Source of the DNA: Carcharhinus longimanus
Lineage: Eukaryota
NCBI GenBank assembly: GCA_030264375.1
Contig: JASCQW010000132.1
Location: forward strand, 91,286,341 to 91,350,340
Length of the DNA: 64,000 nucleotides
Reading direction: 5' to 3'
Of this stretch, positions 13,241 through 48,570 are shown piece by piece. Position 1 is the stretch's first letter, and each line of letters opens with the position of its first letter. The position numbers and the translations under genes are program-made. The notes under the pieces are model-generated. The model saw only the letters and a program-made list of their open reading frames with translations, was not told where the DNA came from and searched no databases.

Positions 13241-13806
13241 AAGATCTTCCACTGCTTTCCATGGATACATGAGAAACAGGAGTACTCTTCCTGACTCTAT
13301 AGTCCTGATGATTTTACCCTTCCACAACTTGCTTGCTCCACCACCACAAAAACATATCTGAGGGCTATCTTTGCTGATGCACACAGCCTGAATTCTTCAT
13401 ATGGGGTGATCTGTATGAAATCAATTTCTGCTCAAACACAGAGTGTGGGCCCAGTTAGAAATCTCCCCATAAATATCTTTAGAAAATATGCTTTTAAAAC
13501 TTTGCAGAAAACACTAACTACAGGAAATTCTCATGAAACTTGTATTGGTCCTGCTATATAAAGTAAGCAGAGAAATTCTTCCCTTTGGTTTTATTAGGTA
13601 CATCTCCAGGTACAAAGTTATTGATAAAGTGCACTACAAAATACTCATTTTTTTTATTGATGATAAAAATCCCTGTTGCAATGCTATTACATCAATGATA
13701 GAAAATAGACAGTATGATCATTGTTTTTGCATCAGTTTCCATTTCACTCAGTGGTATGGCCATATACCTGGAATACATTCTATAAATATCCTTATAGATG
13801 ATTTAC

Positions 13807-14121
13807 CTGACTCTGTGCTCCTGTGGGGAGAGGTTGCAGTGGAGGGGTCTGGTGTTGTGGTGGATGTGTGTGTAGGTGTGGATGAGAATGGGAGTGGTTT
13901 TGCTGGTGATGATGAGGATGATGTTGATGCGGGTGCGGTGCCTGCTGCTGATGTGTGAAAGGATGGTGGGAGGGAGGCTGGTGTTGATGTGAGTGCATAT
14001 GATGGTGTGGCTGTGGTGGCTGCTCCTGCCTGGATGTCATCATCTCCATTACTTGACCCATCATGTTCATATTTCCATTTGACAAAGCCGCAGGGTGCTG
14101 ACTCAGTGCTGCTTTAAGCCT
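13807..14121 (-). CDS. CREB5: CREB5 internal exon, His/Gln/Pro-rich region (105 codons, phase 0/0)
   Basis: Translates RLKAALSQHPAALSNGNMNMMGQVMEMMTSRQEQPPQPHHHMHSHQHQPPSHHPF...GAQSQ. Acceptor is tttgttttcttttcag|AGG and donor is CAG|gtaaat. RLKAAL followed by a His-rich tract distinguishes CREB5 from ATF2/ATF7. Confidence 0.95.
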
Positions 14122-16277
14122 CTGAAAAGAAAACAAAGCAAAGAATGCTAATTAAAACCTCATTGCTTTTCAAATTTGCCATATTGAAGATGTTATACAC
14201 ATTCTCTCCTCAATATCCAAAAACCCCAGATGTCAAAGTAAATGGTAGAAGTCATGCTGGTATTAAAAACTGTGTAATCATACTTCATTACAAGATTAAT
14301 GTTTTGCATTTCATTGGCCAACATCTGTGCTTTTTTTTAAAAGCCCCTTTTCAAAGGTTTTCTTGCTTTTAAAGATTCTGAGCCAAACATTTTCTTTTTA
14401 ATGTCACTACAGCAATGATCATTACCTTCTCTGAGCAAAACAAGAATGTAACCTTTCAAATGTATTCATCTTGGCTGTTTGAGCACCAAATATAAAAAGG
14501 AACTGTCCAAGTGTGTTCAGAATGGTTTGTGGCAATGAAATCAAACAAAAACCTTGCATCACTTTGAGTTTCGGTGTCTAACGCCATGGGTACTGCTTTG
14601 GGAGGGCAGTAAGTTTATCCTCCTGCTGCTTGCTGCAGTTTGGTTACTAGCATGTTATTCAAATAACTGCCCAACAGAGATCTGGCATTGATTAGATTAC
14701 AACGGAACAAAGCTATAGTGAAGAGATGGCAGGAAGACTGTCTGAAGAGAAAATTATTCAAGTTGAAACAAAGAAAATTACTTAGTTGCCACCCCTCTCC
14801 CCCAGGAAAGCAACTTGAACACTCAGATGGAATAAGGTCTCTTGAGGACAGAACTCCAGCTGAGGGGAACAAATGACAGGGCTTATGTCTCTGGTAATTC
14901 AAACTGGAAATTCAGTTTCTACACTTACAGGACTAACTGGGGGAGTACCAAGACCAACTGTGTAGCTGCATAAGTAAAACTAATTTAGGTCATTGTTATT
15001 TTGCCAAAAAAAAGATATTCATATGCACACGATGAAAAGTAGTTGCTGCTTCTAATAGTTTATGAAAAGATAATCAGCCATATTTCATATTCTACAAAAG
15101 GTAACTGAAACTGCGCACGATAAGCCACAATACTAAATATGCCAAAATAAAATTTACTGCTACAAAATTAGGTGATCTGCAATAATGAGGATACCTGTGT
15201 CTGAAGATGGAAATCCTGGGATGATAAAAATTAATTCTCATTTTAATAGCAACGTTGAGTTGCAGGCACCAATAGGGTATCCCAGTGCAGCTTTCTGCTT
15301 CATTCTCCCCAGTTTTGTCCTTTGGGACAGTGACTTGATCCTCAAGCCTGTGCAGGGAGTGGGTGAGATGGGGCGGGGTNNNNNNNNNNNNNNNNNNNNA
15401 CGCAGGTAAACATGAGCCAGCAGCAGCCATAGTAATAATATGGCTGCAGGATGGCACTATGAGGATCACTTGACTAGGTTACTTCTATTTGGTGCAGTGC
15501 AAGCAGAGTAAATTTCTAAAATTTTTGCAAATGGTTCCTAAAATGGGTACTGGACTCACATGTCAATGTTGAAATAGGGCCTGATCTTGTTTCAAATGGC
15601 TGCCAAGGCTGTCTTAAAAAAATTTCCTGAATAAACTGAAAAATCCATTGTTGTCACCCTTGTTTTAGATCTGAAAGTTGGGCAAATTGCATTCTAATTA
15701 CTACCCCAAAGCTTTTGTTTAAAATACAGAAGATGGCGTCCTTACAAAGAGTGATCTTTGCAATCTGTATGTGGATGACTACTGAATCCAGTAGATTTCT
15801 CATTGGATTGAGTATCTTTTGAAGGTATAAACAACCACATTTTTTGTATAATTACATTTTCCTGTAAAATAACTAGGAGTAAGATGTGATAAATACAGTA
15901 TTCACAACCATCAGGGCAAGTATTCAAGGCCCAAATTCATCGCTATCAGGAAAACTGCAAACTTTCTGTGCTGCTATTGTATAATTGCCACCAAGGCACT
16001 GTACTTAAATTTTCTGGATTGTCTCAGGTCCTCAGAGGAAGGTCCATGTGCAGAAAATACAACAATTATTGGGGTGGTAAAACAGATTCAAAAGGAGATA
16101 AATAAAAAGTCCGAGAAGCCGAAAACTAAAACTTAAAATAGGAAAAGAAACAAAAAGAAAAGTCATTGGAGTAACTTTAACTTTTAGAGATGGTTTAAAA
16201 TGATAATATTGGTGTGGCTACCCACTACACAACTCTGCAATTTTCCTATCAATTGAAGTGAATGGATAGAACTGTAT

Positions 16278-46440: not shown

Positions 46441-47119
46441 TGAAATCTAATTCTGATAGAGAAGGATCCTGTGTTTGAATTCACACACCATACTGAATAT
46501 ATTGTGAGCTTCAGTACATTGCATTTGTACACTGCCCTTGAACCGATTGTTTACAGAGAATAATACATATGTCATCTGTGTGAAAGGATTCCCAATCAAG
46601 CCACAATTCAAGCCTGACATTATGCATAAGGCATATTTCTGTCAATAAAACTGTTATTTTCCAGTTTGGAAAGAATCCCTGCTGTTAATTGCTGTCAAGA
46701 AATTAATTTACACAGAAGGTGAATTATTTTCTGCCTCTCAGTCTTTTTCTGTTCTTTTTATAGATTGTAAACAACTTTTACTGGCATTTTGGCAACCTTT
46801 ACCATAATCTCAACTGTTGTGCAATAATTACAAAGAACATATATACATATATCAGAACAACTATTCAAATAATAAATACTGCTTTTCTGTTTCTTTCTGC
46901 CTCATTGTAATCCCTTAGGATATGTCATGAAAAAGCAGCTGAAGGGCTGCACTTTTAAAATAATCTTAGCCCCAAGGCTAGTAAGTGTACATTAACACTC
47001 TCATCCTTGATCACTCTCAAAGCTCAGTGTGTGTGAGTGTGTTTGTGGGGTTGGGGGTGTATGTATGAATGTGTATGAATGTACGACAGTGTGAATGTGT
47101 GGGTATGAAAGTGCGTGTG

Positions 47120-47640
47120 CGTGGCAGCCTTGCCTCTGAGTCAAAAGGCTGTGAGGTTCAAGTCCTACTGTAGCACATGAGCATAAAAAAAGACTAACAC
47201 TCCTGTGCATTACTGAGGGAGTGTTACACTTTTAGGGATGTTGGCCGGAACTGTCCAGACTCATACACCCCGTCACTAATGCCAGTGAGAACGGAGAATT
47301 TGGCACCCAGCAAAATTTCCATTCAGAGCAGTGGGACTGGAGAATCCCAACCAAAGGCAAGGTAGGAGGAATCCAGACGTTATCATTCACATGAGACGTT
47401 AAACCAAGACCCTGGCTACTTACTTTGGTGGACAGAAAAGACCCATAACATTGTGCTGAAGAAGAGCAGGGATGTTTGCCCCAGAGTCCTGGCTAATATT
47501 TGGCACTCAAGCAACATCACTAAAGCAGTTTATCTGCATATTATTACCTTGATGTAAGTGGGAGCTGCTATATTTGCAACATTAAAACTGGATCTACACT
47601 TCCAAAGTGCTCCATTGTCTGTTTAAATATTTGAGATATT
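47120..47640 (+). mobile_element. Deu-domain SINE with a nested ~135-bp MITE (47243-47378)
   Basis: TTGCCTCTGAGTCAAAAGGCTGTGAGGTTCAAGTCC head and ATGAGACGTTAAACCAAG...GAAGAAGAGCAGGG...GTCCTGGCTAATATTT...CTACACTTCCAAAGTGCTCCATTG. It is interrupted by GGCCGGAACTGTCC...GGAGGAATCCAGAC. Confidence 0.7.
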
Positions 47641-47643
47641 GGC

Positions 47644-47682
47644 ATCGCTTCTCGGCCTTTTGGCTAAGATCAAGTGTAGTAT
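47644..47682 (+). pseudogene. U2 snRNA 5' fragment (nt 1-39); not a full U2 gene
   Basis: ATCGCTTCTCGGCCTTTTGGCTAAGATCAAGTGTAGTAT equals vertebrate U2 nt 1-39, including stem-loop I and the branch-site pairing GTAGTA. Similarity stops there, and the rest of U2 is absent. Confidence 0.93.
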
Positions 47683-47953
47683 TGGCATGCTGCACTTGGT
47701 TGAAGTCATTAGGTTACATTTCAGCTTCATTTGAAGCAATTTTTAAAAGCAGCATCTCGGCCTTTTGGCTAAGACGCAAACGAGATCAAGCCTTGAAGGA
47801 GGAGCTATGCCTACTATCAGCTTGGATCATGTAGATCAAGCCCAAGACAGGAGGTGAAAGCCCTGTCTTGTCAGCTAGGATCGGGAATGTCTCAACTTGT
47901 TGAGACTCTGAACTGGACTTGATTTGATTGAATTGGAATAAAAAAAATAAAAA
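47644..47953 (+). mobile_element. Candidate U2-snRNA-headed SINE-like retroposon (SINEU-like)
   Basis: U2 head, a second U2 nt 7-26 copy at 47755-47774, AGATCAAG repeats, perfect hairpins, and a 3' AATAAAAAAAATAAAAA tail at 47937-47953. Confidence 0.6.
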
Positions 47954-48570
47954 TCTTCACATCCTGTGGCTCCAGGGGATGAATGGCCTATTCGTGCTCC
48001 TATTCTGTAGGTTCACATGTACTACATCTGGTGAACAGAATCACTAGTTGCAGTGTATAGTAATCCACCCTTATCACAGAGTTGGAAGGATGCTGATTCT
48101 GTTGAGCAATCACTCTCCATTGTTTTTTTTCTAAGTTTGTTTGCCAGTTCAAGATCACTCTCCATAGGTCAGAAGGACTGCATTAGACCAGACAAGAACA
48201 GAATAATGGGCCTTCGAGCTTGATTCAATATGAATATGACTATCCGCTACCTCAGCTCAACCTTCCTACTCTACCCCCTCAATTCCATTAGTAACCAAAA
48301 TACGTCGCTCTTTCCCTCTCCCTGTATATGTTGACTCTTGGGCAGCAACAAGGTTCTTGTGCCTTATATAAGTAGTTGTTACAACAAACCTGTGTTTAGC
48401 TGATCAAGGAAAACAATCCCAAATGTGCTTCACACACGGTCATCTAAAATAGATGCCAAAAAAAAAGGAGCGGCTTCGGCAGCTGAAGGTAGAATTCACA
48501 GTGGTGAGTCAATGGGGAGGAGGAATAGCCAGTAGACCAAAGGTAAAGAGCAACAGGAGGGGGATGGATC

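Follow-up and report, generated by a model that had tools for sequence, protein, structure and literature searches.

A window of 64,000 nt from the genome of the shark Carcharhinus longimanus (the window being this whole stretch of DNA) contains a 310-nt unit that begins with the exact 5' end of U2 snRNA and ends in an A-rich tail. This arrangement raises two questions: what kind of element wears a U2 head, and how such an element could be transcribed and spread, given that the promoters of snRNA genes lie outside the RNA (PMC4494074). The original prediction, made from the letters alone, saw here a dispersed copy of a U2-headed retroposon that could have arisen within a U2 gene. The parts of this copy as we now read them are collected in Table 1.

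Table 1. Parts of the U2-headed copy, in window coordinates.
Feature	Position	Strand	Remark
Whole U2-headed retroposon copy, young subfamily	47644..47953	+	4.6% from majority sequence
Head: U2 nt 1-39, including stem-loop I and branch-point recognition sequence (47676-47681)	47644..47682	+	
Mask arm: imperfect inverted repeat of U2 nt 12-39	47687..47714	+	p=0.001
Decayed piece of U4 5' stem-loop (kink-turn)	47699..47725	+	Pattern whole in older subfamilies only
Small hairpin, then Sm-site-like A2-U5 run without closing G	47724..47744	+	
Second U2 stem-loop I (nt 4-26), extended; the older U2-derived core begins here	47752..47777	+	
Twin hairpin 1; 3' arm from U2 nt 31-55	47784..47828	+	19/25 in old majority sequences
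Twin hairpin 2, basal stem as in hairpin 1; 3' arm from U2 nt 40-62	47834..47881	+	
Hairpin where U2 has stem IIb, then decayed U2 Sm-site region	47889..47925	+	
AATAAA and A-rich tail	47937..47953	+	U2 nt 39 onward follows the tail in 13 other copies

The outline of the copy proved to be as first described. The head starts exactly at U2 nt 1 and is identical over 39 of 39 positions to nt 1-39 of L031, a U2 gene in this genome that is linked to a promoter, and the second U2 piece, originally delimited as nt 7-26 at 47755-47774, is exact over that stretch and extends to nt 4-26 (47752-47774) with 22 of 23 identities. The repeated motif AGATCAAG at 47783 and 47833 and the tail were likewise recovered, and the claim of a structured body agrees with a predicted RNA fold of -104.4 kcal/mol (z -3.9). 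The reading of the interior, in contrast, had to be revised: the stretch behind the head, taken for about 70 nt of unrelated sequence, is actually the inverted copy of U2 nt 12-39 (p=0.001) overlapping a decayed U4-like piece, and most of the body, which had been set apart from U2, is itself derived from snRNA. The copy matches the Rfam U2 model at 54.4 bits, with the score carried by the head; a functional U2 gene was rejected, as neither an intact nt 40-191 nor an upstream promoter is present. No target-site duplication was found around this copy, perhaps because the target DNA may have been lost.

The existence of a U2-headed retroposon family is nearly certain. A search of the shark's own genome returned 3,568 candidates, and among the best 40 scored, 39 lie elsewhere and match this copy at 91-93% across 296-310 nt, their ends being sharp and their flanks unrelated. 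Exact 22-mer matches to the body number 1,167 (5' part) and 803 (3' part), and exact matches to the head 1,301, compared to 0 for the reversed controls. The body is thus far from single-copy, and these counts, together with the relatives at 91-93%, rule out a chance or single-copy chimera. Nor does the body occur apart from its U2 head, at least part of which is borne by all 30 body-anchored loci. From the overlap of two motifs on one contig (26/78 on C1), capture-recapture puts the family at about 3,900 copies, a minimum estimate in which older forms are not counted; the dispersed, A-tailed retroposon of the original prediction is accordingly a family of roughly this size or larger. Conversely, 90 exact U2 heads were inspected from a list of 100, three already covered, one in a shared stretch and the last six being set aside. 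Of these 90, 86 are family members and none is a full U2: 83 pass straight into the body, two do so after an extra U2 piece and one is interrupted, the remaining four being two shorter relatives and two bare U2 fragments. The family consequently explains the false U2 calls in this genome at 86 of the 90 sampled heads.

The copies behave as products of retroposition. The target-site duplications that had been anticipated occur in 9 of 52 near-full copies, two of them doubtful (one tandem copy, one AT run), compared to 0 of 300 shuffled pairs. The unit is non-coding, encoding neither endonuclease nor reverse transcriptase, and the possibility that the body is a LINE fragment was dismissed, with no LINE continuation in 60 motif-anchored loci, many of which contain gaps. 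Clustering is weak: a second piece lies within 1.5 kb at 7 of 73 loci, two of which form one pair and some of which are perhaps assembly duplicates. An unevenly sampled set of 96 copies separates into 64 young ones (median 4.4-5.5% from their own majority) and 32 old ones (8.6-9.8%). Because the closest copy in one compared set is still 3% from the majority, the family appears to be inactive at present.

The older subfamilies and a shorter relative make the descent of the body legible. Old majority sequences match nt 20-47 of the genome's own U4 at 21 of 28 positions (p 0.003-0.023), and the kink-turn pattern is found in 14 of 32 old copies as opposed to none of the 64 young ones; in the young subfamily and in the copy at 47644-47953 alone, the homology to U4 is not significant. 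The A2-U5 run that follows may represent an Sm site, its own match to U4 being not significant. The core of the mask arm is perfectly complementary in the old forms; in the young forms the changes in this core result in G-U pairs, within a longer helix. Downstream of the second stem-loop I, the old forms align to U2 nt 31-55 at 19 of 25 positions and to nt 29-105 at 51 of 75 (p 0.002-0.004), a homology that over nt 40-105 has faded below significance in the young forms and in the present copy. The shorter A-tailed family (L280:590-800, L321:59-257, L259:1791-1990 and L119:1024-1190) amounts to a remodelled U2 of almost full length that has gained one hairpin and includes the Sm site and the stem III region. 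All four of these copies align to U2 from nt 40 to nt 141-185 (p=0.001 each), with the Sm site intact in three, and they match window positions 47839-47947 at 68-76%; twin-hairpin forms occur in L261 and L322. Followed through these intermediates, the body holds, on alignment, a remodelled second U2 (nt 4-105). The likely order of construction would lead from U2 to a one-hairpin variant, then to a twin-hairpin form and finally to the present form, with a fresh head, the mask and the U4 piece.

The mask arm is predicted to pair back on the head through a 15-bp helix and two short ones. As a result of the predicted pairing, the branch-point sequence has an unpaired probability of at most 0.04 in the element, as opposed to 0.89-1.0 predicted at nt 34-38 of U2 proper. 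The positions that differ between subfamilies tend to fall outside paired columns (p 0.02 to 4e-7; with the head excluded, 0.095 to 7e-5). Two-sided changes occur in 3 of 57 pairs, and in the hairpin at 47889-47925 one pair differs on both sides between subfamilies; the covariation term is +0.16. Of six old-young comparisons, just one retains pairing at changed pairs more often than expected. The folding z-scores do not pick a strand, the antisense folding equally well. Taken together, the support for the predicted structure is modest.

An RNA stage is indicated by a single unusual copy among 185. In L298, 28 of 80 A are read as G as opposed to 2 T-to-C changes, with a background of 2.9%, and the A-to-G changes disfavor a preceding G (4/24 vs 24/53, p=0.02), which corresponds to what we take to be the pattern of ADAR. 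A general A-to-G strand bias of the family was considered and rejected: it is absent in 182 of 185 copies, the top three having been set aside (2.88% vs 2.93%, p=0.8). Hyper-editing of L298 is likely to be the trace of a double-stranded, folded RNA that was copied back into DNA. This copy is also one of five (L009, L011, L152, L285 and L298) that carry an extra U2 piece at the 5' end, ending near nt 47-53. The extra piece in L298 shows no A-to-G change, whereas the element part is edited, as expected because such a piece would stem from a jump to native U2 RNA. A survey of sequencing runs listed no RNA data set containing the element; five entries from two studies share about half of the sequence words searched and may include the source sample.

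Direct support for an origin within a U2 gene comes from the other end. At 13 distinct loci (L137-L146, L152, L069 and L236), U2 resumes at nt 39 after the tail; these chimeras came from aimed searches and are rare relative to the thousands of copies. One of them, L236, is an old-subfamily copy. Four of the 13 extend about 40 nt beyond the U2 end, to the point that 14 plain U2 retrocopies, among 30 loci examined, also end at or reach; seven have an A run of their own after a cut U2 part, and two end otherwise. In L069, L152 and L236, just 8-14 nt of U2 precede the A run. No duplication around a whole chimera was seen in the flanks, which were read by eye. At 105 dispersed 3' junctions, in contrast, a U2-like target is absent (1.97 vs 1.94 of 8). 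Because the dispersed copies show no such target, the chimeras are best read as read-through from source copies, and the junction data suggest that these would reside inside U2 genes. A master copy had been expected to have an snRNA promoter upstream and U2 nt 39 onward downstream. The downstream part of this expectation is borne out by the 13 copies, but a promoter-bearing source copy was not found: among 38 copies whose 5' end is intact, none has a U2 upstream flank, and a search with one U2 upstream region retrieved one intact gene and broken remnants with no element behind. We consider this absence weak evidence, because many copies are gapped and few promoter-linked U2 genes are assembled.

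The same site is occupied by a LINE. Four of nine exact matches to five A joined to U2 nt 39-52 represent the 3' terminus of a single LINE family, which we take to be Tx1. At L224, the upstream flank of a second U2 type (score 53; background 14.5 +/- 6.5) is followed by U2 nt 1-41 and then by the LINE 3' end, and in decayed tandem U2 genes of this second type (L064/L065, at G000:C32:64.14 Mb), one holds the LINE 3' end at the Keno site and the other, the U2 gene remnant L064, a bare A run. Judged from these junctions, the LINE inserts at the nt 39 site in genomic U2 genes, so that the suggested birth of the element within a U2 gene, at the site shared by Keno and Utopia, is backed from two sides, by the 13 chimeras and by the LINE insertions. 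The LINE is mostly dispersed, the query alone among 30 loci continuing far into U2, and resembles a weakly specific Keno-like family. A frame upstream of one LINE 3' end has relatives with endonuclease, reverse-transcriptase and zinc-binding domains, and the fragment protein finds a 63% match in a catshark protein; a Pfam search of the fragment reported no domain although the relatives carry them. In the proposed comparison of the element tail with LINE 3' ends, limited to the one LINE examined, a 9-nt tail motif is all that is common to both, and it occurs in 20 of 185 element tails. We regard this LINE as a candidate mobilizing partner of the element.

We assign a probability of roughly 0.6 to a model in which source copies at nt 38/39 in U2 genes were transcribed from the U2 promoter and spread by an L1/Tx1-type LINE. 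Under this model, the host U2 gene would supply the promoter together with nt 1-38 as the head of the element. Most transcripts would stop at the element's own A tail and yield ordinary copies, and a few would pass on into U2 nt 39-191 and the 3' flank and yield the chimeras. The arm behind the head would fold over the branch-point sequence and keep the RNA out of splicing, while the LINE enzyme would use the A tail for priming, without site specificity, and would at times jump to native U2 RNA, leaving the extra 5' pieces. An extended version of this model, to which we would give slightly less than even odds, treats the element as a parasite of snRNA genes that resides at the Keno site, exploits the U2 promoter and a 38-base head and keeps this head folded shut, its old forms, with the U4 kink-turn and Sm-like sites, passing as snRNP.

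The principal competing explanation, which we regard as rather unlikely, is a free-standing retroposon of the SINEU type served by any upstream promoter, with the chimeras produced by a reverse transcriptase that copies U2 RNA down to nt 39 and then jumps onto the element tail. Jumps to U2 RNA at the 5' end are documented by the five copies with an extra piece, and in L298 by the contrast between the unedited piece and the edited element; a few plain U2 retrocopies start near nt 38-40 (L057, L153), and a model of this kind has been proposed, in the published account, for crocodilians (PMC4494074). However, this explanation needs 13 coincidences with a known DNA site of Keno and Utopia, at which a LINE does sit in genomic U2 genes, and it leaves unexplained why the copies set in at U2 nt 1 or slightly within it (58 of 83 start at nt 1-8) with no common upstream extension.

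The chimeras would lose their bearing on the promoter if they were secondary DNA insertions, that is, if a Keno-like endonuclease had placed finished copies into U2 pseudogenes. Plain U2 retrocopies that stop at the same 3' position do exist, the U2 type behind L143 differs from that of the other chimeras, and the LINE does target U2. Nevertheless, this scenario appears quite improbable given the 105 dispersed junctions without a residual U2-like target, the three chimeras with just 8-14 nt of U2 before the A run, and the equal age of both chimera halves: the element half is 94.3% and the U2 half 93.5% at nine loci, a comparison from which L143 was omitted for its different U2 type and L152 for its shortness. 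Still less credible is a source in the form of a variant snRNA gene maintained by the host, with a promoter and function of its own, of which the copies would be processed pseudogenes. The avoidance of paired positions by subfamily changes (p 7e-5 to 0.095 behind the head), the kink-turn pattern kept in the old forms and the U2 Sm site and stem III region retained by the shorter relative would all fit such a gene, but selection on folding is equally expected of a parasite, the subfamilies succeeded one another with loss of the kink-turn, and what follows the element is the remainder of an ordinary U2 gene.

Compared with known systems, the element comes closest to SINEU. SINEU-1, -2 and -3 are snRNA-headed SINEs of crocodilians that, according to the text of the original report, were found nowhere else (PMC4494074, Kojima 2015), and that text leaves open how they are transcribed. 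As described there, SINEU and the shark element share a short (<500 bp), A-tailed, U2-headed unit dispersed in thousands of copies with one common structure, 5' truncation, occasional duplications near 10 bp, internal T runs and a probable Tx1-type partner. The recurrent addition of U2 pieces at the 5' end is common to both (five copies and a nested build here), and the core, as in SINEU-3, is a remodelled U2. Unlike SINEU in that account, element copies continue into U2 from nt 39, an inverted copy of the head stands behind it, and a U4 piece takes the place of U1. SINEU is further described as sharing with Tx1-Mar a preference for Mariner-N4 targets. The shark element shows no target preference at its 3' flank, as tested with a U2-like target, and the flanks of its copies look unrelated. 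The element works like SINEU, matched on the described structure rather than on sequence, and is probably of independent origin.

The relationship to U2-specific LINEs is one of site. In the published description, the 3' junction of Utopia is at U2 nt 39 and that of Keno is identical (PMC4640811); in the element, as in Keno (Tx1 clade) and Utopia (NeSL clade), U2 resumes at nt 39. Unlike these LINEs as described, the element codes for nothing, and it does not look like a deletion derivative of the LINE described above; identity with Keno or Utopia was discarded, as the element has no coding capacity and most copies are not in U2 or U2-like targets. Reptiles have weakly specific Utopia families with most copies outside U2 (PMC4640811, in its text), but the dispersed copies of the element, in contrast to the crocodilian Utopia of that account, lack remnants of a U2-like target. 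The R2 SIDEs of Drosophila, for which template jumps to snRNA are reported (PMC3414825), resemble what we propose here in being, by that description, non-autonomous elements that occupy the site of their partner within a multicopy RNA gene and are co-transcribed with this gene. SIDEs retain LINE ends and a ribozyme and do not leave the rDNA, whereas the shark element retains the U2 5' end as its head and is dispersed; no Rfam ribozyme match was found in it. A classical Pol III SINE was also rejected, with no tRNA, 5S or 7SL Rfam match and with T4 and T5 runs inside the element.

The literature searched contains no shark U2-headed family, although figures, supplements, Repbase or Dfam may still list one. 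In the text available to us, PMC5786205, PMC4758252 and PMC8143547 cite only the 2015 SINEU work, and the word 'snRNA' is absent from the main text of PMC5499810 and PMC10468316. What is new here are the 13 chimeras into U2 nt 39, the LINE at the same site and the one hyper-edited copy. If residence in U2 genes is true, it offers a concrete answer to the question of how snRNA-headed SINEs are transcribed, connects the emergence of SINEs with LINEs that target U2 and implies that the SINEU-like type arose twice. The parasite reading, if true, would make this the first snRNA-headed SINE with an identifiable promoter within the literature searched, and a natural case of an RNA that neutralizes a U2 5' end.

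Several observations concern the surroundings of the family. In the window, the copy is flanked by old repeats, with a SINE-like stretch bearing an inserted repeat upstream (47100-47643) and a repeat tail downstream (47968-48032). The window contains no second family copy, and a look for a host gene found none, with no Pfam match for 15 long frames and one homologue search likewise coming back empty; a Gln/His-rich open frame on the minus strand (13751-14151), possibly an exon, has no Pfam match. Elsewhere, L337, L338 and L339 each hold a local cluster in which three or four copies from differing subfamilies lie together, some arranged head-to-tail with a recurring short spacer, and in the U4 cluster a U4 gene has a family copy (L267:1945-2227) about 300 bases away. 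In the chimeric copy L059 (minus strand), a different repeat interrupts the junction of head and body, and the stretch adjoining the U2 head on its 5' side is presumably related to 5S rRNA, which it resembles.

The U2 genes of this genome are diverse in their own right. At least four types with differing upstream flanks are present (L031, L034, L046-L048 and L064), of which L046-L048 have a shortened 3' part. Plain U2 retrocopies (L035-L045, L049, L051, L057) often carry about 40 nt of 3' flank with one common end, which suggests that they are copies of a long U2 precursor. Divergent U2 genes on small contigs (L058, L032, L033) may stem from another organism in the assembly, and the one at L058 lies in AT-rich DNA beside what we take to be the end of a histone-like gene.
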